A stretch of 64,000 nucleotides of DNA from [Archangium] primigenium (GTDB lineage: Bacteria; Myxococcota; Myxococcia; Myxococcales; Myxococcaceae), in assembly GCF_016904885.1 (NCBI RefSeq), contig NZ_JADWYI010000001.1:7305224-7369223 (forward strand). The letters are read 5' to 3'. Both the position numbers and the translations under genes were made by a program. The notes below the pieces were generated by a model. It did no database searches. It was not told the DNA's origin and saw only the letters and a program-made list of their open reading frames with translations. Shown piece after piece: positions 1,877-63,587 of this stretch; position 1 is the first letter of the stretch; the number at the start of each line of letters is the position of its first letter.

Positions 1877-2487
1877 GATCCCGGACGCCCGCGGATTTCG
1901 CGGGCCGCTGCCGGGACTGCTACATGCCGCTCGCGTTGTGCCTGTGCGCCGAGGTGTCTCGCGTGCACACGCGCACCGAGGTGGTGATCGTCCGCCACAA
2001 CAAGGAGACCCACAAGTCCACCAACACGGCGCGGCTGGCGGAGCTCATGCTCGAGCGCTGCCGCATCGTGACGTACGGCGCGCCGGGCGGGGACTTCGTG
2101 CCGGAGTCACTCGCCACGCCCCGGACGTGGATCGTCTTTCCCGAGGCCCCGCTCCCCGCGCCGGACGCGCCCCCACCCGAGCGGCTGCTGCTGCTCGATG
2201 GCAGTTGGGCCCAGGCGCGGCGCATGTACCAGCGCATCCCCGGGCTCCTGCGCCTGCCAGGCATCCGGCTGCCCCCGCCCGCGCCCGACTCGCGGCGCCT
2301 GCGCCAGCCGCCCCACCCCTACGGCATGTCCACCGTGGAGGCCATCGCGGGGGCGCTCGGCCTGCTGGAGGGCGAGGCCGTGGCGCGCCCGCTGCGCGCC
2401 CTGCACGAGGTGATGATCGACCGGGTGCTGGCCAGCCGGGGCGTGGGCACCGTGCCCGAGGTCGAGGACGACGGAGACACGCCGTGA
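1873..2487 (+). CDS. DTW-domain protein (tRNA-uridine aminocarboxypropyltransferase-like)
   Basis: N-terminal CxxC...CLC cysteine cluster and a DGSW (DTW-like) motif (LLLLDGSWAQARRMY). ATGA overlap with the upstream ORF. Confidence 0.6.
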   Translation: MRSRTPADFAGRCRDCYMPLALCLCAEVSRVHTRTEVVIVRHNKETHKSTNTARLAELMLERCRIVTYGAPGGDFVPESLATPRTWIVFPEAPLPAPDAPPPERLLLLDGSWAQARRMYQRIPGLLRLPGIRLPPPAPDSRRLRQPPHPYGMSTVEAIAGALGLLEGEAVARPLRALHEVMIDRVLASRGVGTVPEVEDDGDTP

Positions 2488-3038
2488 GCGACGCGCCCCG
2501 CGAGTGGATCGTCTTCGACTACACCATGGAGTCGCTGCTGCGGGTGCTGGGCCAGCCCCTGCTGCCCGAGCACGTGGCGGGGCTGATGGCGCTCGGGGTC
2601 AACCCGCGCCGGCTCGAGCCCGCCTTCCCGGTGGCGGTGTACATCCGGGTGCTCGACTTCATCGGCCAGCAGCTGTGGCCCGGGCTCTCCCGGGAGGAGG
2701 CCGCCTTCGCGGTGGGCCGGGCCTTCATGGTCGCCTACCGGCAGACGCTGATGGGCAAGGCGGTGTTCTCCATCACGCGGGTCATCGGGCCCCACCGGGC
2801 GCTCGACCGCATGAGTCGCAACTTCCGCAGCGCGAACAACTACACCGAGACCCGCCTGACCCCGCTGGGCCCCAACCGCTACGCGCTGTGGTTCAACCAC
2901 GCGACGAACACGGGCTTCTTCCGGGGACTGCTCACCGAGGCCCTGGAGGGCATTGGCGTGCGGGGGCTGAGCGTGACGCTGATGGACAGCGGCGGGCAGG
3001 AGCCGGGCGCCACCTTCCTGGTGTCCTGGTCGGAGTAG
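2484..3038 (+). CDS. TIGR02265/DUF2378-family protein (myxobacterial paralog family)
   Basis: GTGA overlap with the DTW gene. The sequence (VLDFIGQQLWPG...AFMVAYRQTLMGKAVFSITRVIG...) is clearly homologous to a second in-window paralog at 41974..42594. Confidence 0.55.
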   Translation: MSDAPREWIVFDYTMESLLRVLGQPLLPEHVAGLMALGVNPRRLEPAFPVAVYIRVLDFIGQQLWPGLSREEAAFAVGRAFMVAYRQTLMGKAVFSITRVIGPHRALDRMSRNFRSANNYTETRLTPLGPNRYALWFNHATNTGFFRGLLTEALEGIGVRGLSVTLMDSGGQEPGATFLVSWSE

Positions 3039-3065
3039 CGCCCCGGCGAGGACCGGGGCCCGCAA

Positions 3066-3112
3066 AGAGCGAGGCCCGCCTCCCGGTGCCTCGCGGCGAC
3101 GGGAAGCGGGCC
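3066..3112 (+). terminator. stem-loop terminator after the DUF2378 gene
   Basis: GAGGCCCGC...GCGGGCCTC, a perfect 9-bp inverted repeat, 28 bp past the stop codon. Confidence 0.4.
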
Positions 3113-3394
3113 TCGTAGAATCCCGCCTGCCCCCCGGCACACGGGAACCCGGAGGCGGAGGGGCCACGCACGTGGTCCACCACACCCGGGAGCGGGTCGC
3201 CACCGCACGAGCCCCCTCGTCCGGAACGGCCTTCCTTTGTTCTGGAACGCACCCTCTCACGGCCCCCCGCCGCCGCGCTGTGAAGCCCTTCACTCGATTC
3301 CTGTGAGGTGCGTCACCCCCGCTGTCACCCTCCGTGCGGCCCCGCCTCCACTCCGCCCTTCGGGGACCGGGGCGGCTGCGCTAGCGTGCCCGCC

Positions 3395-5626
3395 ATGCCG
3401 CGCACCCTGTCCTTCCGTGGTTTCCTAACCCTGGGCCTCGTGGCCTGGACGGCCTCGGCGGCGCCCGCCGCTCCCGCCCCGGCCCTGCCCTCCGCCGAGG
3501 AGCGCCTGGCCCACCTGGCCCGGCTCTGGGGTCAGGTGAAGTACCGCCACCCGGCCCTGGCCTCCCGGGACATCGACTGGGACGCGGCGCTCGTGGCCGC
3601 CCTGCCCCAGGTGGAGGCCGCCGGGGACGCCGACGCCTACGCCCGCGCGGTGCAGGAGCTGTTGGAGACGCTCAAGGATCCCGCCACGCGCGTGCTCCGT
3701 CCGGAGGAGGCCGCTCCGGCCGAGGACACGGGAGCCTCTGGCGCGGGCCGCGAGCAGGCCGCGCGCTGGGCCGCCAAGGACGTGCTCCTGCTGGACCTGG
3801 GCGCGCCGTGGACCGAGACGCCCCGGAGCGAGCTGGCGCGCGCCAAGGCCGTGCTCGTGGACCTGCGGGCCCGGGGCCTGGACGCCCGCGCCCCCGAGCG
3901 CATGGCCCAGGCGCTCGGCGGCGTGCTGCCGCTGCTCCTGACCCAGCCCCTGCAGGTGCCCGGCTCGCGCTCGGTGTTCCACTCGGGCCACCGCGCGCAC
4001 ACCCTGCCCGCCGACGGCCGCTACACGAGCGCGCTGCTCACCACCTCGGGCGAGGTGGTGCCGCCCCAGGGACAGGGCAAGCCCCGGCCCATCCTCTTCG
4101 TGCTGGACGACCGCTCGCCCGTGGACGCGCGCGTGCTGACGATGAAGGCGCAGGGCCTGGCGCAGGTGCTCACCGAGGGCCGGCTGGATGACGGCGCGAG
4201 CGCCGAGACGACGCGGGTGGAGCTGGGCGCGGGGCTGGTGGCCAGCGTGCGCCTGAGCGAGCTGGGCGTGCCGCTGCGCGCCGACGCCGTGCTGCCCCGG
4301 CGCGCCCGGAGCGAGGGCAAGGACGACACGCTGCAGAAGGCGCTGGAGCTGGCGCGCAAGCCCGTGCGCAAGGTGAAGGTGCGCGAGGTGGAGCTGCCCC
4401 CGGGCCGCTGGCGCACGGACAACGCCTACCCGGACATGACGTACCCCACGCGCGAGTACCGCCTGCTCGCGCTCTTCCGGCTGTGGAACGCCATCGAGCT
4501 GTTCTACCCCTACAAGCACCTGATGGACGGCGACTGGGACGATGCCCTGCGCGCCGCCGTGCCGCGCTTCGCGGGCGCCCAGGACGCCGCGCAGTACGCG
4601 CTCGCCGTGGCCGAGCTGAGCACGCGCCTGCAGGACGGCCAGGTCACCCTCGCGGGACACCCGGAGCTGGAGCGGCGCGGCATCTCCGGCAGCCCCGCGC
4701 CCTTCGAGGTGCTGGAGCTGGAGGGCAAGCCGGTGGTGGTGCGCGTGGGCGACGCCGAGGCCGCCTCGGGCCTCAAGCGGGGCCAGATCGTCGAGACGCT
4801 CGACGGCCAGCCCCTCGCCCAGCGCCTGGAGGCCCTCAAGCCCTACGTCACGGCCTCGCAGGGCACGGCGCTGCGCCAGCGGCTGTGGACCCAGGCGCTG
4901 TCGGGCCCGGACGGCTCCCAGGCCACGGTGGGCGTGCGCGACGCGGACGGCCAGCTCAAGCAGGTGCGCTTCACCCGGGGCCCGCGCCGGGAGTCCCCCT
5001 CGGGCGAGGCGTGGCGGATGGGCCCGGACAACATGGGCTACGTGGACTTGACGCGGCTGCGGCCCACCGAGGTGGCCGCCCTGTTCGAGAAGATGAAGAA
5101 CACCCGGGCGCTGGTGCTCGACCTGCGCGGCGCCTCCCCGGGCACGCGCTGGGCCCTGACGCCCTTCCTCACCACGCGCAAGGCGCGCCACGGCGCGGTG
5201 CTCGAGCGCAACCTCGTGTCCGCGGACCACACGGGCCGCTACAAGTTCTCCGAGGAGCTGCCCCCTGCCGGCGCGGCGCCCTACCGCGGCCGCACCGTGC
5301 TGCTCATCGACGAGCGCACCCTCGGCGCGGCGGAGGACACGGGCCTGTTCCTGGAGGTCGCCAACGGCACCACGTTCGTCGGCGCGCCCAGCGCGGGCGC
5401 CACCGGCGGCGTGACGGACCTGGTGCTGCCCGGCGGCATCTCCCTGCGCTTCTCCGGCGAGGACGTGCGGCACGCGGACGGCCGGCAGTTGCAGCGCGTG
5501 GGCCTCAAGCCCCAGCTCTACGCGCGGCCCACGCTGGCGGGCCTGCGCGCGGGCAAGGACGAGGTCCTGGAGCAGGCCTACGGCTGGCTCAAGGGCAAGG
5601 GCGGCCCGGTGGGCGCGCCCCGCTAG
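3395..5626 (+). CDS. secreted S41-family (tail-specific/C-terminal processing) peptidase with PDZ-like region
   Basis: Signal peptide MPRTLSFRGFLTLGLVAWTASAAPAAPA. The C-terminal region (VLLIDERTLGAAEDTGLFLEVANGTTFVGAPSAGATGG) is typical of the S41 catalytic domain. A PDZ-like segment (GQIVETLDGQPL) is present. Confidence 0.6.
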   Translation: MPRTLSFRGFLTLGLVAWTASAAPAAPAPALPSAEERLAHLARLWGQVKYRHPALASRDIDWDAALVAALPQVEAAGDADAYARAVQELLETLKDPATRVLRPEEAAPAEDTGASGAGREQAARWAAKDVLLLDLGAPWTETPRSELARAKAVLVDLRARGLDARAPERMAQALGGVLPLLLTQPLQVPGSRSVFHSGHRAHTLPADGRYTSALLTTSGEVVPPQGQGKPRPILFVLDDRSPVDARVLTMKAQGLAQVLTEGRLDDGASAETTRVELGAGLVASVRLSELGVPLRADAVLPRRARSEGKDDTLQKALELARKPVRKVKVREVELPPGRWRTDNAYPDMTYPTREYRLLALFRLWNAIELFYPYKHLMDGDWDDALRAAVPRFAGAQDAAQYALAVAELSTRLQDGQVTLAGHPELERRGISGSPAPFEVLELEGKPVVVRVGDAEAASGLKRGQIVETLDGQPLAQRLEALKPYVTASQGTALRQRLWTQALSGPDGSQATVGVRDADGQLKQVRFTRGPRRESPSGEAWRMGPDNMGYVDLTRLRPTEVAALFEKMKNTRALVLDLRGASPGTRWALTPFLTTRKARHGAVLERNLVSADHTGRYKFSEELPPAGAAPYRGRTVLLIDERTLGAAEDTGLFLEVANGTTFVGAPSAGATGGVTDLVLPGGISLRFSGEDVRHADGRQLQRVGLKPQLYARPTLAGLRAGKDEVLEQAYGWLKGKGGPVGAPR

Positions 5627-53040: not shown

Positions 53041-56000
53041 TCAGCCGGGCTCCTCGGATTTCGAGGAGGGGGAGGCGGGCGACGATGTTCCCCCCTTGGG
53101 GCGGCGAAGCAACTCATTCTTCACCGCGTTGAGTTCGGCGTTGGCCCGCGCGTAGATATCCTGGACGGAGTCCGGCGCCCGTGCCAGGGCGGTGGGCGGG
53201 GCCTCCAGGGACAAGAGGCGCTCCTCGGCCCGCTCCCGGGCCGCCTGCGCCTCGGCGAGCTCGGTCTTGAGCTGCTCGGACTCGGCGGAGAGCCGGGCCG
53301 TGTCCGCCTCCAGTCGCGCCAGCCGCTCCTCGGCGGCGACCCGCGCCGCGCGCGCCTCCTCCAGCGCCGTCTCGAGCGAGGTGGCCTTGCCCGCGATGCG
53401 CCGGGCCGTCTCCAGCTTCACGGCCAGCAGGTCCTGGTGCTCGCTCTCCGAGGAGAGCTTGGCCTTGGTCTCGACGAGCTGCGTCTGGAGGTCCTCCACC
53501 AGCAACTCGCGCTCGCGCAGGGTCATGTGGGCCTGCTGCAGGGCCATGGAGGCCTGATGGGCCTGGAAGCGGAAGGCCTCCAGCTGGGTGGCGGCCTCGC
53601 GCGCCTGGGTGAGCTCCTCGCGCAGCCCCTCCAGCTCCATGCGCGACTCCACGGCCTCGCGCTTGCGGGCCTCGCGCTCCAGGGTGGTGGCGGCCTCGCG
53701 CGCCTGGGCGGTGGCGAGCGTGTCCCGCTCCGAGGCGAGCCGGACCTCGAGCGACTCGACGAGCTGCCGGAGCACCCCGCGCGACGCCTCCAGCTCCGCC
53801 CGCTCCGACCGGGCGGCCTCCAGCTCGGCGCGCACCGCGGCCAGCACGGACTCGGCCTCCTCACGCTCGGCGGCGAACAGGCCTTCCGTCTCGGCGCGCT
53901 GGCGCCGCTCGGTGTCCAGCTCCGCCTGGAGCCGGGCCAGCGACTCGCGCTCCTCCGCCTGGGCCGTGCCCAGCGCCGCCTCGGCCCGCGCCCGCGTCTC
54001 GCGCTCCACGTCCCACGCGGCGCTCATGGACGCCAGGGAGGTCTCGAGCTCGGCGCGCTGCTTGCGTTCGGTGCCCAGCTCCGCCTGGAGCTTCGCGCGG
54101 GACACCTCGACCCGGGCCTTGCCCGCGCGCTCCGCGTCGAGCTCGGCGCTCCACTCCGCCTGGGCGCGCGCCTGGGCCTCGTCCTTCTCCTCGAGCGCCA
54201 CCTCGAGCGCGGCGCGCCGCCGCTGTTCGGCCGCGAGTTCCTCCTGGAAGATGGACAGGGAGCGGGTGCCGTCGGCGCGCTGCTCGCGCTCGCCCTCCAG
54301 CTCCACGCGCGCCTGGGTCAGCGCGTCCTCGGCGAACACGCGCTGCTCGCGCTCGCCCTCCAGCTCCTCGCGGGCCGCCGCGAGTTGGGACCGCTCGGCG
54401 GCGAGGGCCGCGTCCCGCCCGGCCAACGACGCCTCGGCCTCGGAGCGTCGCAGCCGCTCGGCCTCCAGCGCCTCGTCCTTGCCGGTGAGCGAGGCATCCG
54501 TCTCGGCGAGCCGCAGCCGCTCGGTGTCCCGCTCCGACCGGACGCGGGACAGGGACTGCTCGGCCCGCTCGCGCTGCTCGCGCTCGGCCTCCAGCTCGGA
54601 GCGGGTGCCCGTGAGCGACTCCTCCGCGAACGCGCGCCGCTCGCGCTCGGCCTCGAGCTCCCCCTCGGTGTTCGCCAGGGACACCTCGACGTCCGCGCGC
54701 TGGCGCTGCTCCGCCTCCAGTTCCTGCTGGGTGAGCCCCCACGAGGCCTCGGCGCGGGCCCGGTGCGCGCGCTCGGTGGCCAGCGAGGCCTCCCACGAGG
54801 TCGTGCTCTCGGTGCCGCGCCGCCGCTCGGCCTCCAGCGCCTCACGGGCCTGGGCGAGAGCCTCCTCCGAGCCGCTCCGGGCCCCCTGCTCCGCCTCCAG
54901 CGCGATCCGAAGCTCCGCCAGGGCCTCGTCCACCTGGGCGCGCTGGCGCCGCTCGGCCTCCAGCCCCCGCTGGGCCTCCGCGAGGGCCGCCTCCACCTGG
55001 GCACGCTGCTGCCGGCCCGTCTTCACGACGCCCCGCGTCTCCTCCAGGGCCTCGTCGACCTGGGCACGCTGCTGCCGCTCGGCGTCCAACGTCCCCTGGA
55101 TCTCCAGCAGGGCCGCCTCGACCTGGGCGCGCTGCCGCTGCTCGGCTTCCACCGTGGCCTGGAGCGCGAGCAGGCCCGTATCCCCTTGGGCACGCTGTTG
55201 ACGCTCGGCCTTCAATGCCTCCTGAAGCGCGCGCAGCTCCGCGTCCCGCTGGGCGCGCTGTTGACGCTCTGCCTCCAGCGCCGCCTGGAGTTCGCGCGAG
55301 CCCGCGTCCCCCTGGGTCCGCTGCCGCCGCTCGGCCTCCAGGGCCTCCTGGAGCTCGCGCGCGCCCGCCTCGAGGTGGGCGCGCTGCTGCCGCTCGGCCT
55401 CCAGGGCCTTCTGGAGCTTCGTGCCCTCCTCGAGCGCCAGGAGCCGCCGCTGGTGTTCGGCCTTGGCCTCGGCGCGCACGCGCGCGAGCTGCTCCTGGGC
55501 CTCGGCCATGTGCTGGCGCTCGGTGGTGAGGCCTGCCTGGAGCTGGGTGAACGACGCATCCAGGGCCGCGCGGGCCTCGACCTCCAGGGAGAGCTCCACG
55601 TGGGCCCGGTCCCGCTCCACCTCGGCCTGGAGCCGGGCGTCCCGCTCGGCGGAGATGCCGCCCTGGGTCGCCTGGAGTTCGCCGTCGAGTCGGGCGATGG
55701 ACTCCACGTCCGAGGCGCGCACCCGCTCCAGCTCCGCGAGCGAGGCCTCGACCTCGGCCAGGCGCCGCCGCAGCACGCCGCGCTCGTCCGCCCAGTCCTG
55801 CCGCTGCTCCTTCAAGGCGGCGACGGAGTGCGTGGCCTCCTCGCGCGCGGCCTCCTCCATCCGGAGCTGATGCTCGAGCGCGGCGGCGGCCTGCTCCAGG
55901 GCCTCGCGCGCGGAGCGCTCGCGGGACGCCTCGTCCCGGGCCTCCTGCGTGCGGGCCCGCTCCTCGGTGAGGGCCCGCGCCAGCCGCTGCTCGGCGTGCT

Positions 56001-57717
56001 GGCGCTCCTCCTCGATGGTGTCCTCCAGCTCGGCCGCGGCCCGGACCCGCTCCTCTTCCAGCGAGGCCGAGCGCGTCCGCGTCTCGTGCAGCTCCTGCTC
56101 GAGCCGCGCCGCCAGCTCGCGCGCCTGGGCCTGGAGGCGGGTGCTCTCCTGGACCTCGGCCGTCAGCCGCTCGCGCTCGGCGCGCGCCGCGGTGAGCTCC
56201 GTGACCTGCCCGCGCAGCTCGGCCTCGCGCGTGGTGAGGTGCATCTCCGCGTCCCGCCGGGCGGCCTCGGCCGTGGACAGCCGCCGGGCCAGGGCCTCGG
56301 TCTCGCGCGTGAGCCGGGACACGTCCGCGTCCTGCAGGCGCAGCGACTTCTCCGACGCCTCGCGTCCCTGCTCGACGCGGGCCACCTCGGCCTGGAGCGA
56401 CTCCACCGCGGCGAGCGCCGTCGAGTGCTGCTCGGCCAGCCTCACCTCGCGCTCGCGGGCGGCCTCCGCCTCGCGGCGCAGGGCCTCGGCCTGCTCGCGC
56501 GCGCGATCCGCCGCGAGCCGGTCCCTTTCCCGCTCCACGCGCAGACCGGCCTGCTCGTCGCGCAGGCCGCGCTGCTCGGCGTAGGCCTGGGTGAGCCGCT
56601 CCCGGGACTCCTCCAGCGAGGTGTGCAGCTCCTCGCGGCGCGCGCGCTCCAGGCGCACGGCCTCCTGGGCGGCCAGGGCCTGGACCTCGGACTCCTTGCG
56701 GGCGCGCTCGGCGGTCTCCACCTCCAGGCGCTGCTGGGCGAGGCGCCGGTCCGCGTCACCCAGTCGCTCCTGGGCCACCTGCAGCTCCAGGCCGGTGCGA
56801 CGCAGGCGCGAGGCCAGCTCATCCCGCTCGCGCAGGGAGTCGGGCGAGCCCCGCGCCAGCTCGAGCTGGGCGGACAGCCGCGCCACGTCCTCGCGCGAGG
56901 ACTCCAGCGCGGGTTTGATCGACACGAGCTCGGTCTCGCGCTCGGTGAGCTCGGCGCGCACGCGGGTGAGGGACTCCTTGAGCCGTCCGGCGCGCTCCTC
57001 CCAGCCCTTGCCCCGCTGGGCCACCTCGTCCAGCTTGCCGCGCGTGAAGGCCAGGGGCTCGGGGGGCAGTTGCACCCAGGTGGGGTCCACGACACGGGCG
57101 GGCTCCTGGCCGGCCACCACGAGGAAATAGGCCGCCTCGCCGCCGCGGATGAGCGAGCCGTCCACCTGCAGCCCGTCCCCCTTCTCGAAGGCGAGCTGGT
57201 AGCCCAGGACGGGGGACTGGGTGGCGACCTCCACGTGGGAGAAGTGCGGCGAGAGCGCGTCGAGCAGCTGGCCGTACGTGGGCGGCGCGCCCTCGTCCAC
57301 CTCCATCAACTGCCAGAGGGCCAGACCCGCCACGTTGCGCAGGCCGCCGATCAGGTGCCCCTGCCGGCCCACCAGGCGCGTCAGCTCGGCGAGCAGCATG
57401 GGGGCGCGCACATAGGGCGCCAGGTCCGCCACGAGCACGAGGTCGAAGCTGCCCGGCTCCAGGTCGTCGTAGACGTTGGCGCGAAAGCGCAGCGCGGGGC
57501 CGCCATGGGCCTTGTGCGCGGCCTCCACGGCCTGGAGGTCGGCATCACACGCCACGACGGAGCGGGCGCCGCGCTCCAGAAGGAAGCGCGCGCTCTCCCC
57601 ACCGGTGGTGGCGATCGCGTCCACTTCCAGGACGCGGCGGCGGGCGAAGAGGCTCTCCGCGAAGATGTACCGGGGCAACAGCTCACTGGTCCCCAGGCGG
57701 CGGAATGTAGGATGCAT
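53041..57717 (-). CDS. giant (about 1558 aa) coiled-coil protein with N-terminal Rossmann/methyltransferase-like domain
   Basis: N-terminal 230 aa has an MTase-like fold (RRVLEVDAIATTGGESARFLLERGARSVVACDADLQ...FDLVLVADL). Then about 1300 aa of Ala/Glu/Arg/Gln coiled coil, including about 20 tandem 21-aa LEAERQQRAQ-type repeats. Start set at MHPTFRR to leave a 100-bp divergent promoter region. Confidence 0.6.
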   Translation of the reverse strand: MHPTFRRLGTSELLPRYIFAESLFARRRVLEVDAIATTGGESARFLLERGARSVVACDADLQAVEAAHKAHGGPALRFRANVYDDLEPGSFDLVLVADLAPYVRAPMLLAELTRLVGRQGHLIGGLRNVAGLALWQLMEVDEGAPPTYGQLLDALSPHFSHVEVATQSPVLGYQLAFEKGDGLQVDGSLIRGGEAAYFLVVAGQEPARVVDPTWVQLPPEPLAFTRGKLDEVAQRGKGWEERAGRLKESLTRVRAELTERETELVSIKPALESSREDVARLSAQLELARGSPDSLRERDELASRLRRTGLELQVAQERLGDADRRLAQQRLEVETAERARKESEVQALAAQEAVRLERARREELHTSLEESRERLTQAYAEQRGLRDEQAGLRVERERDRLAADRAREQAEALRREAEAAREREVRLAEQHSTALAAVESLQAEVARVEQGREASEKSLRLQDADVSRLTRETEALARRLSTAEAARRDAEMHLTTREAELRGQVTELTAARAERERLTAEVQESTRLQAQARELAARLEQELHETRTRSASLEEERVRAAAELEDTIEEERQHAEQRLARALTEERARTQEARDEASRERSAREALEQAAAALEHQLRMEEAAREEATHSVAALKEQRQDWADERGVLRRRLAEVEASLAELERVRASDVESIARLDGELQATQGGISAERDARLQAEVERDRAHVELSLEVEARAALDASFTQLQAGLTTERQHMAEAQEQLARVRAEAKAEHQRRLLALEEGTKLQKALEAERQQRAHLEAGARELQEALEAERRQRTQGDAGSRELQAALEAERQQRAQRDAELRALQEALKAERQQRAQGDTGLLALQATVEAEQRQRAQVEAALLEIQGTLDAERQQRAQVDEALEETRGVVKTGRQQRAQVEAALAEAQRGLEAERRQRAQVDEALAELRIALEAEQGARSGSEEALAQAREALEAERRRGTESTTSWEASLATERAHRARAEASWGLTQQELEAEQRQRADVEVSLANTEGELEAERERRAFAEESLTGTRSELEAEREQRERAEQSLSRVRSERDTERLRLAETDASLTGKDEALEAERLRRSEAEASLAGRDAALAAERSQLAAAREELEGEREQRVFAEDALTQARVELEGEREQRADGTRSLSIFQEELAAEQRRRAALEVALEEKDEAQARAQAEWSAELDAERAGKARVEVSRAKLQAELGTERKQRAELETSLASMSAAWDVERETRARAEAALGTAQAEERESLARLQAELDTERRQRAETEGLFAAEREEAESVLAAVRAELEAARSERAELEASRGVLRQLVESLEVRLASERDTLATAQAREAATTLEREARKREAVESRMELEGLREELTQAREAATQLEAFRFQAHQASMALQQAHMTLRERELLVEDLQTQLVETKAKLSSESEHQDLLAVKLETARRIAGKATSLETALEEARAARVAAEERLARLEADTARLSAESEQLKTELAEAQAARERAEERLLSLEAPPTALARAPDSVQDIYARANAELNAVKNELLRRPKGGTSSPASPSSKSEEPG
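54250..55550 (-). repeat. 63-bp tandem coding repeats (21-aa LEAERQQRAQ units) inside the giant coiled-coil gene
   Basis: Repeated GAGGCCGAGCGGCAGCAGCGCGCCCAGGT-like units on the coding strand. Coordinates are approximate. Confidence 0.6.
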
Positions 57718-57819
57718 GCGGTAGAGCGGCCGAGTATAGCCCCGGGGAGGGATGTCCCTAAGGAATGCACCCGGGCTTGTGCCTGGCCGCATCGCCCGGA
57801 CGAGGGGAGAGCAAGCGAT

Positions 57820-58602
57820 ATGAACTCGACGATGAATCCGCGCCCGGGACTGGGCCATCGGGCCGCGACGGCCTTCACCCGGCTGCTCGTCACCCTGCTC
57901 GTGCTGGGCCTGGGGGGAGCGGTGGCCTTCCTGCTGTCCCAGCTCAATGCCCGCACCTTCTCCTTCGCCCAGGAGAACGGCCAGCTCGTGGTGATGAAGG
58001 GCCGGATGCTGCCCATGGGGGCCCTGCCCTACCAGCCCGGGGACGCGCGCCAGGCGGACGCCTATGCCCCCCTGACGGTGGAGGGCCAGGACGTGTCCGG
58101 GCTGGTCGAGCGCCGGTTCTCCGAGCGGGACGAGCTGGACCGGGCGCTCTTCTCGCTCCTGGAGTCGCTCGCCCGCTACAAGGTGCTCTCGGACAAGCCG
58201 GCCGAGCTGGAGCGGGGGCTGTACTACCTGCGGCGCGCCGAGCTGCTCTCGGGCCTCACGGACGAGCAGCGCCGCTCGCTGGCGTCGATGAAGGCGGACG
58301 TGGCCTTCTTCCAGGCCAAGCAGAAGCTGGAGGAGGCGCGCCGGGGCGTGAGCGAGGCCATGGTCCAGCTCAAGCTCGCGGCGGAGAGCCGCAACCGCAA
58401 CACGCCCCTGGCCAACCAGTTCCTCACCACGGTGGGGCCGGCCGCCCAGGCGCTGGAGCAGGCCCTGCGCGCCGCCGAGGCCAGCCTGGGCAACACCCCG
58501 GCCGAGCAGCCGCCCCGGGAGACGCCCCCCGCCGCGACGCCCACCGCGGCCCCCGAGACCCAGCCCACGCCCGACGCCTCCACCCCCCCCAACGCCCCAT
58601 GA
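57820..58602 (+). CDS. membrane-anchored hypothetical protein with Pro/Thr-rich C-terminus
   Basis: GGGGAGAG RBS 8 nt upstream. N-terminal TM helix (LLVTLLVLGLGGAVAFLL). Divergent from the giant coiled-coil gene. Confidence 0.5.
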   Translation: MNSTMNPRPGLGHRAATAFTRLLVTLLVLGLGGAVAFLLSQLNARTFSFAQENGQLVVMKGRMLPMGALPYQPGDARQADAYAPLTVEGQDVSGLVERRFSERDELDRALFSLLESLARYKVLSDKPAELERGLYYLRRAELLSGLTDEQRRSLASMKADVAFFQAKQKLEEARRGVSEAMVQLKLAAESRNRNTPLANQFLTTVGPAAQALEQALRAAEASLGNTPAEQPPRETPPAATPTAAPETQPTPDASTPPNAP

Positions 58603-59066
58603 CGACGACCCCGGTGCCCCCCGAGATGAAGCGGCTCGCGCCCTTCGAGAAGACCCTGCGCGAGGCGGCCCGTGCCTACCCCGAGACGACCGAGGACTTC
58701 CCCTGGGGCCACCCCACGGTGAAGGTCAAGGGCAAGGCGTTCGTGTTCTTCTCGCTCAGCGCGGAGGGCCTCTCCCTGTCCGTGAAGCTGCCCCACTCCC
58801 ACGAGGCGGCCTTGATGCTGCCGTTCGCCCAACCCACCGGCTATGGCCTGGGCAAGAGCGGCTGGGTGTCGGCGCGCTTTGGCGCCAAGGACACGCCCCC
58901 CCTGGAGCTGCTGCGCCAGTGGCTCGACGAGAGCTACCGCGCGGTGGCGCCCAAGAAGCTCGTGGCGGGCCTGGACGGCGGAGGCACGCCCTCGGCCCGA
59001 AAGCCCCCGGCCGCCAAGAAGCCGCTGGCCGCCAAGAAGGCCGCTCGCCGCTCCCCCCGGTCCTGA
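58599..59066 (+). CDS. MmcQ/YjbR-family predicted DNA-binding protein
   Basis: EDFPWGHPTVKVKGKAFVFF is the family signature. ATGA overlap with the upstream gene. Lys/Ala/Pro-rich basic tail. Confidence 0.6.
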   Translation: MTTTPVPPEMKRLAPFEKTLREAARAYPETTEDFPWGHPTVKVKGKAFVFFSLSAEGLSLSVKLPHSHEAALMLPFAQPTGYGLGKSGWVSARFGAKDTPPLELLRQWLDESYRAVAPKKLVAGLDGGGTPSARKPPAAKKPLAAKKAARRSPRS

Positions 59067-59091
59067 TCTTCCGAGCAAGGAGTCTCTCCGC

Positions 59092-60048
59092 ATGGCTTCC
59101 CCTTCGCAGGTCCGCCCCGTGGTCCTCCTGGGCGCGCGTGACGATGCCCACGTCTCCCGCCTGGCCCAGCGGCTGGGGCAGGAGGGGGTGGTGGCGCTCG
59201 TCGTGGACACCCTCGCCTTCCCCGAGGACACGCGCCTGGCGCTCACGGACGCGCTCGACGGCATCCACGTGAACGGGGGCGCGCTGCCGACCCCGGGCGC
59301 CGTCTACCTGCGCGGCTACCATGGCCACCCCCTGGCCTTCGGCGTGGACGCGCGCGAGGCCATGGACGACGACTGGCGCACGACGCTGGTGGCCTTCCGC
59401 GAGAAGTCCACCCTGCTGCGGGGGCTGGTGGGCCGCTGGGAGGCGATGGGCATTCCCGTCTACAACCCCGAGTCCACGAGCTGGCGCATGCCCAAGCCGG
59501 TCCAGCTCGCGCTGCTGGCCCAGGCGGGGCTGCCGGTGCCCGAGACCCTCTGGACCAACGACTCCGTGGCGGTGCGCCGCTTCGCCGAGGGCCGGCGCGT
59601 GGCCTACAAGCCCGTGGACGGGGGCGCGGCCACGCTGGAGCTCGGCCCGGGAGACCTGAGCGACGAGCGGCTCGCCGCCCTGGAGGCCGCGCCGGTGACG
59701 TTCCAGGAGCTGCTCACGGGCGAGGACCTCCGCGTCTACGTGCTCGACGGGGAGATCATCGCCAGCGTGCGCATCCACTCGCGCGCGATCGACTTCCGCG
59801 GCCACGAGGAGCGGCTCGAGTCCATCACGCTGCCCGACGAGGTGGCCCGGCAGTGCCTGCTGGCCACGCGGGTGCTGGGCCTGCGCTGGACGGGGATGGA
59901 CCTCAAGCGCGATGCCCAGGGCACCTGGCGCTTCCTGGAGCTCAACGAGTCGCCCATGTTCCTCGGCTTCGATGCCCGGGCCGGCACGGACATCCTGGGG
60001 CACCTGGCCCGGGGACTCGCCCGCGCGGCTCGCCTGCCTGCTCCTTGA
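59092..60048 (+). CDS. RimK-like ATP-grasp ligase (candidate graspetide macrocyclase)
   Basis: AAGGAG RBS 9 nt upstream. ATP-grasp motifs (KPVQLALLAQAGLPVPET, VAYKPVDGGAA, ELLTGEDLRVYVLDGEIIAS, MDLKRDAQGTWRFLELNESPMF). 318 aa. Confidence 0.65.
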   Translation: MASPSQVRPVVLLGARDDAHVSRLAQRLGQEGVVALVVDTLAFPEDTRLALTDALDGIHVNGGALPTPGAVYLRGYHGHPLAFGVDAREAMDDDWRTTLVAFREKSTLLRGLVGRWEAMGIPVYNPESTSWRMPKPVQLALLAQAGLPVPETLWTNDSVAVRRFAEGRRVAYKPVDGGAATLELGPGDLSDERLAALEAAPVTFQELLTGEDLRVYVLDGEIIASVRIHSRAIDFRGHEERLESITLPDEVARQCLLATRVLGLRWTGMDLKRDAQGTWRFLELNESPMFLGFDARAGTDILGHLARGLARAARLPAP

Positions 60049-60233
60049 ACGAGGAAGGGAGCAAGGGGCCGACATGCCGTGGGCCTGCCGATCACGCCTG
60101 CCCGCCCATGCGCCCCGCTTGGTCTCCCCACCCCGAAGGCACAGCTTGTGTTCGAGGGCGCACAACGGACACGCGTGACGCCCTCGTCACCATGGGATGG
60201 ACCCGTGGGATTCAGTGGCTTCAGGAGGCGGTC

Positions 60234-60386
60234 ATGAAGCACGAGAAACAGGAGCAGAAGGTCAAGAAGATCAAGGAGCTGTTCGTGAAGGAGCTCGCCC
60301 GCGCCGAGGGCGACGTGCAACCGACTCACGCGGCGGCGATGGATCAGTACACCACGCTCGCCTTGGGTGAGGAATCGGGCAGATAG
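60234..60386 (+). CDS. candidate graspetide (group-2, TTxxxxEE) precursor peptide, 50 aa
   Basis: AGGAGG 5 nt before the ATG. MKHEKQEQKVKKIKELFVKELARAEGDVQPTHAAAMDQYTTLALGEESGR: Lys-rich leader and C-terminal TTLALGEE. Lower GC than the surroundings. Confidence 0.5.
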   Translation: MKHEKQEQKVKKIKELFVKELARAEGDVQPTHAAAMDQYTTLALGEESGR

Positions 60387-60477
60387 TTTCAGTCAAGCCG
60401 CGCCCAGGTCATGGGCACGGGACAGGCACGGCGGGGCTCCCCCGCCGGTCTGCCTGGGGCGCCTCGAGCCGCTCGCC

Positions 60478-61011
60478 CTATTTGCCCTTCATCAGGCCGA
60501 TGAACGGCAGGTTGCGGTAGCGCTCGGCGTAGTCCAGGCCATAGCCCACCACGAACACGTCATCGATGACGAAGCCCTTGTAGTCGATGGGGATCTTCGT
60601 CCGGGCGCGCGCGGGCTTCTCCAGCAGGGAGCACACCTTGAGCGACGCCGGGTGGCGGGCGCGCAGGTTCTCCAGCAGGAAGCTCATGGTGAGCCCCGTG
60701 TCGATGATGTCCTCGATGACGAGCAGGTGCTTGCCCGCCATGGGCTTGCTCACGTCGGTGGTGATGCGCACCTCGCCGGTCGTCTCGGTGCCTCCGTGGT
60801 AGGAGGACACCCCGAGGAACTCGACCGTCAGGGGCAGGTCCACGTAGCGCGCCAGGTCCATGGCGAAGAAGGCCGAGCCCTTGAGCACGCAGATGAGCGT
60901 GAGGTCCTTGCCCTGGTAGTCACGGGTGATCTGCTCGCCCAGCTCGCGCACGCGCGCCTGGAGCTTCTGCTCGTCGATGTGGATGCCGACGTCCTGCTCG
61001 TAGAAAGCCAC
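60478..61011 (-). CDS. hpt: hypoxanthine phosphoribosyltransferase
   Basis: PRTase motif LLVIEDIIDTGLTM. Overall HPRT sequence. Confidence 0.8.
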   Translation of the reverse strand: MAFYEQDVGIHIDEQKLQARVRELGEQITRDYQGKDLTLICVLKGSAFFAMDLARYVDLPLTVEFLGVSSYHGGTETTGEVRITTDVSKPMAGKHLLVIEDIIDTGLTMSFLLENLRARHPASLKVCSLLEKPARARTKIPIDYKGFVIDDVFVVGYGLDYAERYRNLPFIGLMKGK

Positions 61012-61050
61012 GGGATGACCCCTTCCACGCGTCCGCGTGGGTGATGAAGT

Positions 61051-61653
61051 TCAGTTGCCGAACAGCTCGAGCGTCTGAGGCGGCGTGGCCTCGGTGGGCT
61101 CGGCCCGGTGGCACTTGCGGCAGCGCGCCTCGTAGGCGCCGGCCGCGCCCACCACCACGCGCTCGCCGCGATCCACCAGCCGCTGCGAGCGATTGGCGGG
61201 ATTCCCACACACGACGCAGATGGCCAGTTGCTTCGTCACGTACTCGGCGATCGCCAGCAGCTGCGGCATCGGCTCGAAGGGACGGCCCTGATAGTCCTGA
61301 TCCAGCCCGGCCAGGATGACGCGCAGGCCCCTGTGCGCCAGTGCCTCACACACCGCCACCACCTCGCTGCCGAAGAACTGCACCTCGTCGATGCCCACCA
61401 CCTGCGTGTGGGGAGAGAGATGACGGAAAATTTCTTCAGCCCGTTCGATGGGAATGGAGGTCAATTTCAACTGGGAATGGCTGACCACCTGGGTCTCGTC
61501 GTAGCGGTTGTCGATCCTCGGCTTGAAGACCTGGACCGCTTGCTTGCCATAGACGGCGCGCTTGACGCGACGGATGAGTTCTTCCGTTTTTCCGGAGAAC
61601 ATCGACCCGCAGATGACCTCTATCCACCCGATGTCTTTGGGGAATTGGTGCAC
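61051..61653 (-). CDS. tdk: thymidine kinase
   Basis: P-loop GSMFSGKTEELIRR and C-terminal zinc ribbon CVVCG...CRKCH. The start is uncertain. The long upstream frame is unlikely to be translated. Confidence 0.7.
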   Translation of the reverse strand: MHQFPKDIGWIEVICGSMFSGKTEELIRRVKRAVYGKQAVQVFKPRIDNRYDETQVVSHSQLKLTSIPIERAEEIFRHLSPHTQVVGIDEVQFFGSEVVAVCEALAHRGLRVILAGLDQDYQGRPFEPMPQLLAIAEYVTKQLAICVVCGNPANRSQRLVDRGERVVVGAAGAYEARCRKCHRAEPTEATPPQTLELFGN

Positions 61654-61828
61654 GCGAGGAACTCGATCGGGGTGGGGGTTGGAGCGCGGGTCAGCTCTGA
61701 CACGCCCCTCCTGGCACGTCAACTTCCCGCCCCCCGCGACCCGAGGCCCCACACGCGCCGTCCGCCCCCGGCCCCGTGGCAAGCATCTTGAATGACGTTG
61801 CTTCGGGTTCAAACCGGGGAGGTCTTGG

Positions 61829-62197
61829 GTGGCGACGACGACGACGCAGACGCAGGTGGCGGGTTGGGGGATCGAGGGTGCATCTTTTCACATCACCCCC
61901 GCGGCGGCGCTCCTGCTCGTGCTCAACCTCTTCGATGGCCTGTTCACCCTCACCTTCCTGCAGATGAACGTGGCCGAGGAGCTCAACCCGCTCATGCGCG
62001 TGGCCTATGCGCACTCGCCCCTCTCGTTCATGGCCGCCAAGCTCACTATCGTGAGCCTGGGCCTGATGCTCCTGTGCCTGCACCGCTCCATGAACATGAG
62101 CCAGCGGGCGATCCAGGCAGGGGCCGCGCTTTACACCGTCATCGACATCTACCACCTGGCCTTCCTGACCCACCTGGTCCGGGAGACCGTCGTCTGA
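61829..62197 (+). CDS. small integral membrane protein, hypothetical
   Basis: Three predicted hydrophobic helices. The start codon is uncertain. Confidence 0.4.
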   Translation: MATTTTQTQVAGWGIEGASFHITPAAALLLVLNLFDGLFTLTFLQMNVAEELNPLMRVAYAHSPLSFMAAKLTIVSLGLMLLCLHRSMNMSQRAIQAGAALYTVIDIYHLAFLTHLVRETVV

Positions 62198-62288
62198 CAC
62201 ACAACCAAGCCCCGACAGACTTGCTTTTCCGGGCCGGTCTGACTCAGGCTCCCCCCAGCACTGGACCTGCGAGGTCCTTGGGGGGACC

Positions 62289-62591
62289 ATGAACATCACC
62301 GACGTGAAGGTGTATCCGGTTGAAGAAGACAAGCTGAAGGCCTACGTGACCATCACCCTGGACCACTGCTTCGTCATCCGTGACTTGAAGGTGATCCACG
62401 GGGCTTCGGGCCTGTTCATCGCGATGCCAGCCAAGCGGCGCAAGGATGGCACCTACAAGGACATCGCGCATCCGCTCAACGCCGACACGCGCACGCAGAT
62501 GGAGCGCGCCATCCTGCTGGAGTACGAGCGCCAGCAGCAGACGGGCCTGGGCGCCCTCGGCGCGTTCATGAGCGCGGCCGAGGCGGACTGA
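62289..62591 (+). CDS. spoVG: septation protein SpoVG
   Basis: MNITDVKVYPVEEDKLKAYVTITLDHCFVIRDLKVIHGASGLFIAMP is canonical SpoVG. Confidence 0.85.
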   Translation: MNITDVKVYPVEEDKLKAYVTITLDHCFVIRDLKVIHGASGLFIAMPAKRRKDGTYKDIAHPLNADTRTQMERAILLEYERQQQTGLGALGAFMSAAEAD

Positions 62592-62636
62592 GAGAACTCT
62601 TCCCTTCCGCCACGGGGCGCGCTAGGAGCGCGCCTC

Positions 62637-63587
62637 ATGGACGCGCGCGACTTCAAGGTGTTCGCCGGAAGCTCCAACCCGGTCTTGGCCCAGCGGATTT
62701 GCGATTACCTCAAGCGCCCGTTGGGCAAGGCCCACGTGGGCCGGTTCTCGGATGGGGAAATCCATATCGAGATCGGCGAGAACGTCCGGGGACAGGACAT
62801 CTTCATCGTCCAGTCCACGTGCCCGCCGGCCAATGATCACCTGATGGAGCTGCTCATCATGTGCGACGCGCTCAAGCGCGCGAGCGCCGCCTCCATCAAC
62901 GCGGTCATCCCCTACTACGGCTACGCCCGGCAGGACCGGAAGGTGGCGCCGCGCACGCCCATCACCGCCAAGCTCATCGCCGACCTGCTCGAGGTCGCGG
63001 GCGCCACGCGGGTGGTGTCCATGGACATGCACGCCGGGCAGATCCAGGGCTTCTTCGACATCCCCACGGATCACCTCTACGCCTCGCCGGTGTTCCTGGA
63101 GGACGTGCGCGAGCGCTTCCCGGACACGCACGAGCTCGTCATCGTGTCGCCGGACGCGGGCGGCGTGGAGCGGGCGCGCGCCTACTCCAAGCGGCTCAAC
63201 TGCGGCCTGGCCATCATCGACAAGCGCCGGCCCCGGCCCAACTCCTCCGAGGTGATGAACCTCATCGGGGACGTGTCGGGCAAGGACGCGCTGCTCATCG
63301 ACGACATGGTGGACACCGCGGGCACGCTCACCCAGGCGGCCATCGCGCTCAAGGAGCGGGGCGCGCGCCGGGTGCTCGCCTACGCGGTGCACCCGGTGCT
63401 CTCCGGGCCCGCCATCCAGCGCATCCAGGACTCGCCCCTGGAGGAGATCGTCTTCACCGACACCGTGCCCCTGTCCCCGGCGGCCCAGGCCTGCGGCAAG
63501 ATGCGTGTCATCAACACCGACCGGCTCTTCGGCGAGGCCATCGCGCGCATCCACCGCGCCGACTCGCTCAGCTCGCTCTTCGTGTAG
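62637..63587 (+). CDS. prs: ribose-phosphate pyrophosphokinase
   Basis: VFAGSSNPVLAQRICDYL, the PRPP-binding loop DDMVDTAGT, and GEIHIEIGENVRGQDIFIVQS. Confidence 0.9.
   Translation: MDARDFKVFAGSSNPVLAQRICDYLKRPLGKAHVGRFSDGEIHIEIGENVRGQDIFIVQSTCPPANDHLMELLIMCDALKRASAASINAVIPYYGYARQDRKVAPRTPITAKLIADLLEVAGATRVVSMDMHAGQIQGFFDIPTDHLYASPVFLEDVRERFPDTHELVIVSPDAGGVERARAYSKRLNCGLAIIDKRRPRPNSSEVMNLIGDVSGKDALLIDDMVDTAGTLTQAAIALKERGARRVLAYAVHPVLSGPAIQRIQDSPLEEIVFTDTVPLSPAAQACGKMRVINTDRLFGEAIARIHRADSLSSLFV

Follow-up and report, generated by a model that had tools for sequence, protein, structure and literature searches.

A putative two-gene plesiocin-type graspetide cassette in [Archangium] primigenium and its larger relatives in the Archangiaceae

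In a 64,000-nucleotide stretch of the [Archangium] primigenium genome (contig NZ_JADWYI010000001.1, positions 7,305,224 to 7,369,223 of the forward strand; the whole stretch is termed the window here), a gene for an ATP-grasp ligase is followed on the same strand by a 50-codon open reading frame (ORF), which raises the question whether these two genes by themselves make a graspetide, i.e., a peptide closed by omega-ester bonds. The species is placed by NCBI in the genus Melittangium. A preliminary description, made from the letters of the DNA, had proposed a Group 2 (plesiocin-type) ligase/precursor pair, and this proposal was borne out by the homology of the ligase to PsnB, by the leader motif LFVKEL and the core motif TTxxxxEE of the peptide, and by the co-occurrence of the two genes in other genomes. 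The 318-aa ligase, the 185 bp gap, the 50-codon ORF and its AGGAGG ribosome-binding site (RBS) were all recovered in place (Table 1). Resting on homology, on the conservation of contact residues and motifs, on co-localisation, on a trait correlation among relatives and on an RNA hairpin in front of the precursor, we regard a functional two-gene Group 2 graspetide cassette, with good confidence, as the best explanation of the locus.

Identity of the ligase and of its candidate substrate

The ligase (RefSeq WP_204492786.1) is annotated only as 'ATP-grasp domain-containing protein'. Its best match among solved structures was 7DRM_A (PsnB), with an E-value of 2.5e-88 and 299 bits over residues 9-309, and the two proteins shared 50.5% identity over 301 aligned residues; the entries 7DRM-7DRP represent the plesiocin macrocyclase PsnB, plesiocin being classed as a Group 2 graspetide (bioRxiv 10.1101/2021.03.09.434688). 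The second-ranked match in the Protein Data Bank, an MvdD-like enzyme, followed at an E-value of 1.4e-11, and RimK and LysX structures reached only 1e-5 to 1e-7. Further, the three top-ranking NCBIfam models were all ATP-grasp ribosomal peptide maturases, namely TIGR04187 with 80 bits, TIGR04185 (MvdC) with 49.8 bits vs. a cut-off of 425, and TIGR04184 (MvdD) with 48.1 bits vs. a cut-off of 475. The family model rimK_fam (TIGR00768) gave 43.4 bits vs. a cut-off of 143.4, and the S6-glutamate-ligase (RimK) equivalog PRK10446 gave 27 bits vs. 331.

A RimK/GshB-type enzyme that adds amino acids, e.g., glutamate, to a protein or metabolite, with the small ORF beside it by coincidence, would agree with Pfam, which found only a generic RimK-like ATP-grasp domain (residues 209-307), and with the names given to homologues, among them 'RimK family alpha-L-glutamate ligase' and 'glutathione synthase/RimK-type ligase'. 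However, both RimK models stayed far below their cut-offs, the RimK and LysX structures matched weakly in comparison with PsnB, the ligase retains the residues with which PsnB grips the leader Phe and the core Glu, and the only TTxxxxEE motif in the six frames of the 64 kb adjoins the ligase gene, a pairing that recurs across phyla. A RimK/GshB assignment was rejected on these scores and matches, and together with the co-occurrence and the contact residues they effectively refute such an enzyme as an explanation of the locus, which we regard as hardly conceivable. A microviridin-type assignment was rejected as well, because the MvdC and MvdD models fell far under their cut-offs and the peptide of the window carries no microviridin motif, neither the PFFARFL leader nor the TxKxPSDx(D/E)(D/E) core being present in it. 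These results support the placing of the ligase, as judged by its sequence, with the PsnB-type graspetide macrocyclases rather than with RimK or GshB, in line with the affinity that the preliminary description had supposed.

In PsnB, R72, R101 and R213 bind the ring-forming glutamates, R72 and R213 in all groups and R101 in Group 2a only, and the leader Phe is received by a pocket of Y171, I193, L196, V201 and F203 plus R192, with R181 pairing with Asp18 of the leader (bioRxiv 10.1101/2021.03.09.434688). The three arginines align with R74, R103 and R214 of the ligase, which were invariant in 17 homologues, and the leader pocket has its counterparts in Y172, L194, L197, V202, F204 and R193, i.e., six of the seven leader-site positions are kept. 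Altogether, 9 of 10 substrate-contact residues of PsnB are retained, including the equivalent of the Group-2a-specific Arg101. The residues of the leader pocket and ATP-grasp residues such as K173, D270, E283 and N285 were likewise invariant in the 17 homologues, whose identity ranges down to 57%, and pairwise ratios of nonsynonymous to synonymous substitution rates (dN/dS) of 0.20-0.38 were obtained for the ligase vs. its relatives.

The product of the small ORF, MKHEKQEQKVKKIKELFVKELARAEGDVQPTHAAAMDQYTTLALGEESGR (50 aa; RefSeq WP_204492789.1, 'hypothetical protein'), consists of a leader of residues 1 to about 38, one core and a tail of SGR. The single TTxxxxEE core and the KIKELFVKEL leader that had been pointed out before were both confirmed, with LFVKEL spanning residues 16-21 and TTLALGEE residues 40-47, so that one ORF holds both an LF[IV]xx[L] motif and, 3′ of it, the core motif. 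LFVKEL is equivalent to LFIEDL of PsnA2, which is needed for PsnB binding with Phe15 as the key contact, and the cores of PsnA2 are TTxxxxEE as well (bioRxiv 10.1101/2021.03.09.434688). In an alignment of four precursors, M1, K2, E4, Q6, E7, L16, F17, L21, R23, E25 and G26 were invariant, as were T40, T41, A43, L44, E46, E47, S48 and G49, and substitutions were concentrated in the linker; pairwise dN/dS values of the precursor were 0.36-0.97, which is noisy for 50 codons. A double-glycine site (GG, GA or GS) was not found at the end of the window leader, which reads ARAEGD vs. ARIEGG in the sister clade formed by Archangium (see below).

With PsnB as the guide, we infer the following course of ester formation and ring closure. 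The ligase and the downstream precursor would be expressed from the same strand, and the ligase would bind the leader via LFVKEL, with Phe17 in the pocket described above, R193 standing over it, and L21 also in the pocket, and would hold the core glutamates by R214 and R103. R214 would place E46 near the gamma-phosphate of ATP, and E46 would be phosphorylated and then attacked by T41 to give the inner ring; E47, held by R103 of the partner subunit, would be phosphorylated next and attacked by T40 to give the outer ring. The predicted product is one hairpin-like bicycle of the nested macrolactones T41-E46 and T40-E47, 36 Da lighter than the precursor. Inhibition of serine proteases is the known activity of plesiocin and of other characterised graspetides (PMC13097080; PMC8939145). 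By analogy, the same activity is most probable for the constrained Leu-Ala-Leu-Gly loop. Such an LALG loop may point to a chymotrypsin- or elastase-type target.

Recurrence of the pair and reduction of a larger cluster

To place the pair among its relatives, 59 loci with ligase relatives (36-79% identity) from Myxococcota, Actinomycetota, Acidobacteriota and various proteobacterial metagenome-assembled genomes (MAGs) were scanned in six frames. At most of these loci, the ligase is adjoined on the same strand by one or more small ORFs in which an LF[IV]xx[L]-type leader precedes 1-8 TTxxxxEE cores, so the association that the preliminary description had anticipated in other genomes does exist. 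All close relatives have an adjoining precursor except L060 and L061, which are treated below. In L062, whose ligase is 99% identical, the 50-aa ORF is identical and is called as a gene, and the ligase/precursor pair was also found in Melittangium boletus. L068 (ligase 80% identical) and the Stigmatella loci L064 and L066 (76-78%) have 51-codon ORFs at the same distance from the ligase and in the same RBS context. The RBS and the distance from the ligase stop were conserved in the four relatives examined, and the small ORF as a whole proved to be conserved, its frame, length, RBS, leader motif and core being kept in Stigmatella and several metagenomic lineages.

Further, with a four-sequence profile as the query, at least nine distinct precursors of 50-51 aa were recovered; they have no Cys and one core, end in EESGx and share the residues listed above as invariant. 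They came from Melittangium, Stigmatella and metagenomes, and the Stigmatella members include S. hybrida and STAUR_7329 of S. aurantiaca DW4/3-1. The cassettes of Stigmatella adjoin DUF1501 or PKD-domain genes, vs. hpt in the window. Single cores free of both Cys and GG were also seen at loci of Myxococcus and Pyxidicoccus. The single core and the downstream position of the precursor, regarded earlier as unusual, are both present, but both are common among relatives, since single cores are in the majority and a precursor 3′ of the ligase is common to the whole Archangiaceae clade (about 14 loci); in most relatives examined, the precursor is located upstream of the ligase.

Two side observations concern the same set of loci. 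L045, L048 and L058, which are beta-proteobacterial and Burkholderiaceae MAGs, encode very long precursors with at least eight tandem T[TS]xAxGEE cores, and an LFxxxL-like motif stands at the C-terminal end of the translated ORF (e.g., ...LLDLFVRDLGR); the recognition sequence may here be a follower instead of a leader, or, alternatively, the ORF boundaries may be wrong. In the two Stigmatella loci, a conserved 179-aa protein that ends in GGGGGW and has no Pfam match is encoded directly upstream of the ligase. It has no homologue in the window, and its gene may be a lineage-specific accessory gene or a mere neighbour.

The neighbour-joining tree built from the ligases has one clade, sister to Archangium, that holds the window, L062, L060, L068 and Stigmatella. 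The cluster of A. gephyra and relatives likewise lies between an upstream yjbR and a downstream hpt, but is larger. Its first gene is a 317-aa ORF with no Pfam match, followed by a C39-like/VKOR/thioredoxin fusion of 590-650 aa, whose stop overlaps the start of the third gene, the ligase. The fourth gene, about 180 bp downstream, encodes a 53-aa precursor, MEPKKEKKVKKIKELFVQDLARIEGG...CPEITTxACGEEPPGCxxC, with four Cys and a GG site, and the fifth, on the opposite strand, is a 754-aa peptidase-C39 ABC transporter (PCAT). When searched by tblastn with the Archangium proteins, the window gave no homologue of the PCAT or of the VKOR fusion anywhere in its 64 kb.

The presence of the fusion followed that of the cysteines. 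Where a precursor was identified, 27 loci had both the VKOR fusion and a Cys-rich core, 20 had neither, five (A. minus among them) had a Cys-rich core without the fusion, and none had the fusion with a Cys-free core. Cores beside the fusion carry 4-8 Cys and are never Cys-free, and the window clade has neither the fusion nor precursor cysteines. The GG site is replaced as well, by EGD in the window and by EGK and EGS in the Stigmatella and L068 peptides, P0128 being the one listed member of the minimal family that still has GG.

As an observation in its own right, the C39-like/VKOR/thioredoxin fusion adjoins a PsnB-type ligase upstream, often overlapping it, at 27 loci in Myxococcota, Actinomycetota and Acidobacteriota; fusion-gene loci are L005 (A. 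gephyra), L001-L004, L007-L009, L014, L016 and L023-L036, and further L040, L042, L046, L047, L051, L054 and L067. This suggests that the VKOR-fusion loci are a plesiocin-type subfamily that unites omega-esters with enzymatically installed disulfides. A search for a link of graspetides to VKOR or disulfides found no relevant paper in the literature at hand.

Reduced clusters were found in other lineages, too. At the A. minus locus (L052), an insertion sequence (IS) element with a DDE_3 transposase and helix-turn-helix domains lies just upstream of the ligase, in the position of the VKOR fusion; the PCAT is also missing there, and the precursor still has four Cys and GG, so that the reduction in A. 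minus looks recent and independent. In L060 and L061, two independent metagenomic assemblies with a ligase 86% identical to that of the window, a deletion of about 200 bp took the RBS, the leader and the TT residues of the precursor and left ...GEESGR* as a remnant, and the PCAT is reduced to a stub and a fragment (Table 1). Their ligase ORF is intact, with a dN/dS of 0.20 vs. the window, and the enzyme is either an orphan in a decaying cluster or serves a precursor encoded elsewhere. The most economical reading of these sequences is that the window holds a reduced two-gene form of an Archangium-like five-gene cluster, in which the precursor would have shed its Cys and GG along with the genes acting on them, and that some lineages then lost the precursor too. 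The locus is therefore as compact as the preliminary description had it, but what was called an unusually compact variant is most readily understood as derived by reduction from a larger cluster of the Archangiaceae.

The same losses could also mean that the pair is a decaying remnant of an Archangium-type cluster with no working pathway, which persists since the decay is recent. Four features of the sister clade, namely its PCAT, its VKOR fusion, the cysteines of its core and its GG site, are missing from the window, L060/L061 deleted most of the precursor and keeps a PCAT stub, and A. minus lost the PCAT and the VKOR fusion beside an IS element. However, the Cys-free architecture of 50-51 aa is kept in at least nine distinct sequences from several genera and in two genomic contexts, and such conservation of the minimal precursor in several genera argues against decay. 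The frame, the start and stop positions, the RBS and the invariant leader and core residues are all intact in the minimal precursors, the ligase keeps a dN/dS of 0.2-0.38 and all catalytic and substrate-contact residues save one, and a structured element 5′ of the precursor shows compensatory changes. The Cys-free, GG-free single cores of Myxococcus and Pyxidicoccus also speak against decay, which we consider quite unlikely.

Several points nevertheless weigh against a functional cassette. Every NCBIfam graspetide model falls under its curated, subfamily-specific cut-off, PsnB Arg181, the partner of leader Asp18, is replaced by Leu182 in the ligase, and the precursor-wide dN/dS rises to 0.97 in one pairwise comparison. 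The loss of the exporter, the disulfide machinery, the Cys and the GG could signal decay, and the nearest metagenomic sister, L060/L061, has lost most of its precursor and has a PCAT that is a remnant. No sigma-70-like promoter was found by a consensus scan, which is uninformative at about 70% GC. The esters and the expression of the pair are predicted in silico.

The losses also bear on the fate of the leader. With no fusion, PCAT, core Cys or GG site, the usual route of GG cleavage and export is improbable, and the mature product is probably not made via it. As a sub-case of the functional cassette, and not exclusive of it, the uncleaved and unexported 50-aa modified peptide may itself be the end product, serving as an endogenous regulator of proteases, either within the cell or once it has lysed during development, with its synthesis under post-transcriptional control via the conserved 5′ hairpin. 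The window peptide has no GG site (in the minimal family as listed, P0128 keeps one), neither a PCAT nor another transporter is present in the window or adjoins the Stigmatella cassettes, conservation extends to the N-terminus MK[RH]E[NK]QE, which would be unexpected for the end of a discarded leader, and a hairpin stands directly 5′ of the RBS. However, this is an argument from absence, and transporters and leader peptidases can act in trans; a C39 peptidase is typically absent from ATP-grasp loci (Makarova et al.; PMC8939145). An end product that is retained in this way seems doubtful to us. It is rather improbable, too, that the Cys-free, single-core, transporter-less precursors of 50-51 aa from Melittangium, Stigmatella and relatives, most of which have no GG site, form a distinct functional subclass of the plesiocin-type graspetides, i.e., an uncleaved, unexported, intracellular or lysis-released protease regulator of fruiting myxobacteria that is tuned by the hairpin.

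Transcript structure and surroundings of the pair

The 3′ half of the 185-bp spacer between ligase and precursor is conserved in Stigmatella and metagenomic relatives beyond what the flanks explain, and two hairpins were predicted in it (Table 1). At the site of hairpin 1, Stigmatella has AAGGG/CCCTT, its G-to-A change being matched by C-to-T, and Archangium has a different hairpin, GCAGG/CCTGC. Hairpin 2 was derived as an RNAalifold consensus of 13 sequences from the minimal and Archangium clades. Its 6-bp stem was paired in 100% of the alignment cells, with compensatory double changes at three pairs, and over the whole structure 98% of the cells were paired, compared with 88% in shuffles (0 of 500 reached the observed value) and 19-62% with slid partners. 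Several G.U pairs of hairpin 2 on the + strand would be A.C on the opposite strand; as these pairs are valid only on the + strand, they indicate an RNA structure in the ligase-precursor transcript and speak against a DNA operator. The GGAG of the precursor RBS, which follows, was invariant in all 13 aligned relatives. Possible roles of these hairpins and of the one described next are those of a candidate transcript-processing or stabilising element, of translational control of the precursor, or of a terminator.

A further GC-rich hairpin lies 3′ of the precursor stop, and its block is kept in L060 and in Stigmatella (L064), despite the different downstream gene of the latter. It is a probable terminator of the cassette or transcript-end structure, though no T-run follows it. 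A consensus scan found no intrinsic terminator, the scan being uninformative in a genome of about 70% GC, and an Rfam scan of positions 58500-61200 found no family, only two sub-threshold chance hits, to mir-3150 and PrrB/RsmZ, at 18-23 bits vs. gathering thresholds of 44-100. Two candidate signals in the spacer were dropped. A sigma-54 promoter, seen by eye at GGCACAGCTTGTG, has a GG-to-TTG spacing that is 2 nt short and a motif that is not conserved, and a CsrA-type site, suggested by a loop GGA of hairpin 2, is contradicted by AUGGG as the loop sequence of both Stigmatella and the 99%-identical relative.

Table 1. Positions of features in the window and at related loci.
Feature	Sequence	Position	Strand	Remarks
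1605-aa ORF	window	53041-57858	-	repetitive, charged
Membrane-anchored Pro-rich protein gene	window	57820-58599	+	conserved surroundings
YjbR-family gene	window	58599-59066	+	upstream neighbour; stop 25 bp 5′ of ligase ORF
AAGGAG, Shine-Dalgarno-like	window	59077-59082	+	9 nt 5′ of ligase ATG; read from sequence
Ligase ORF	window	59092-60048	+	ATG start, 318 aa; read from sequence
Spacer, ligase to precursor	window	60049-60233	+	exactly 185 bp
Hairpin 1	window	60153-60186	+	perfect 8-bp stem CGAGGGCG/CGCCCTCG; minimum-free-energy fold and alignments
Hairpin 2	window	60190-60208	+	stem CCAUGGG/CCCGUGG, loop AUGGA; about 14 nt upstream of precursor RBS
AGGAGG, precursor RBS	window	60223-60228	+	ends 5 nt 5′ of ATG at 60234
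Graspetide precursor ORF (putative)	window	60234-60386	+	50 codons and TAG
Leader motif L16-F17-V18-K19-E20-L21, codons	window	60279-60296	+	equivalent to LFIEDL of PsnA2
Core motif T40-T41-L-A-L-G-E46-E47, codons	window	60351-60374	+	TTxxxxEE, one copy
Downstream hairpin	window	60423-60456		GC-rich, 3′ of precursor stop; minimum-free-energy fold
hpt	window	60478-61011	-	downstream neighbour; TIGR01203, 208 bits
Downstream housekeeping block	window	60478-63587		conserved surroundings
C39-like/VKOR/thioredoxin fusion gene	L005 (A. gephyra)	2052-4004		
IS element	L052 (A. minus)	2667-3785		just upstream of ligase
Precursor deletion and reduced PCAT	L060	5958-6800		87-aa C39 stub and C-terminal ATPase fragment
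Precursor deletion and reduced PCAT	L061	3852-4700		87-aa C39 stub and C-terminal ATPase fragment
179-aa protein gene	L064 (Stigmatella)	2932-3471		directly upstream of ligase
179-aa protein gene	L066 (Stigmatella)	4401-4940		directly upstream of ligase

No GNAT or ABC gene adjoins the pair, as the preliminary description had it; the neighbours are a YjbR-family gene and hpt, whose end lies 91 bases 3′ of the precursor ORF on the convergent strand. The YjbR-family gene was considered as a cluster member and rejected, because in A. gephyra 3.3 kb with other genes separate it from the ligase downstream, and it is absent from the Stigmatella cassettes. The housekeeping surroundings are conserved on both sides, and synteny with relatives was confirmed by tblastn for yjbR, hpt and the gene of the upstream membrane-anchored Pro-rich protein; the names of the genes farther downstream (tdk, DUF5658, spoVG, prs, L25 and pth) come from the Pfam annotation of the syntenic L060 and L062. 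In Archangiaceae, the graspetide genes appear to have been inserted between yjbR and hpt.

The lower GC content that had been remarked on held for the small ORF, at about 0.61 vs. 0.71-0.78 in the ligase, but did not set the pair apart from its flanks, since the spacer is at 0.65-0.70 and the flanking hpt at 0.63-0.67. The dip is mostly due to the Lys/Glu-rich codons of the leader and is no evidence for a foreign origin, which was rejected, the dip being confined to the small ORF and hpt being similar in GC. Upstream of these genes, a 1605-aa ORF on the - strand is nearly all repetitive, charged (E/R/A/L/Q-rich) and coiled-coil-like; its N-terminal region is apparently non-repetitive, and long spurious ORFs arise in the other frames.

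Significance and comparison with known systems

The pair is an uncharacterised addition to the well-described Group 2 graspetides and no new kind of system. About 4000 graspetide biosynthetic gene clusters in at least 24 groups are already catalogued (PMC9576775; PMC11626197), and graspetide specialists are unlikely to be surprised by the finding. Its points of interest are the minimal pair, its reductive history and the conserved RNA hairpin before the precursor. With an enzyme of 318 aa and a one-core substrate of 50 aa, it is a clean minimal example of the plesiocin group, and it would lend itself as a convenient enzyme/substrate system to the engineering of bicyclic hairpin peptides, since its natural precursor already resembles the 'minimal precursor' engineered for the PsnB work. 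It is of evolutionary interest that within the same ligase lineage, the cysteines of the precursor come and go strictly with the VKOR-thioredoxin fusion, and the lineage of the window illustrates how a cluster for a ribosomally synthesised and post-translationally modified peptide is pared to two essential genes.

Parts of this family had been listed before. The downstream precursor of A. gephyra (AKJ02155.1) is cluster5018 of Makarova et al. 2022 (PMC8939145), and single-core TTMALGEE precursors are already in the supplements of that catalogue; EESGx-type peptides were not found in the portion of its supplementary files at hand.

Among characterised systems, plesiocin of Plesiocystis pacifica (PsnA2/PsnB, Group 2/2a; PDB 7DRM-7DRP) is the nearest in kind. 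The ligases are 50.5% identical over their full length, and the core-Glu arginines and the leader Phe pocket of PsnB are kept in the window; the leaders correspond in LFIEDL (PsnA2) and LFVKEL (window), and the TTxxxxEE cores share a hydrophobic, Gly-containing loop, xAIGEE in plesiocin and LALGEE in the window. One ligase would be expected to make both esters, as in plesiocin. In contrast, plesiocin has four core repeats and the window one, Arg181 of PsnB is Leu in the window ligase, and the window peptide ends three residues after EE.

The Archangium-type Group 2 clusters are closer by descent, forming the sister clade in the ligase tree with 75-79% identity. They share with the window the precursor about 180 bp 3′ of the ligase, the yjbR-hpt slot, the same hairpin before the RBS and a near-identical leader (KKVKKIKELFVQDLARIEGG in Archangium vs. 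KVKKIKELFVKELARAEGD in the window). They differ in the four Cys round the core (CPEITTxACGEEPxGCxxC), the GG site, the fusion gene and the 754-aa PCAT, none of which is found in the window.

The microviridins (Group 1; MdnB/MdnC and MvdC/MvdD) stand further off. Common to both would be an ATP-grasp macrocyclase guided by a leader helix, omega-esters between side chains and an expected role as a protease inhibitor, while the window lacks the PFFARFL and TxKxPSDx(D/E)(D/E) motifs, a second ligase for a lactam and a GNAT, and the MvdC and MvdD models stay far under their cut-offs. The alpha-L-glutamate ligases RimK, LysX and MptN have in common with the window ligase the ATP-grasp fold and, in the C-terminal half, the RimK domain of Pfam; in its N-terminal 'pre-ATP-grasp' region and in its substrate-contact residues, however, the window ligase follows PsnB.

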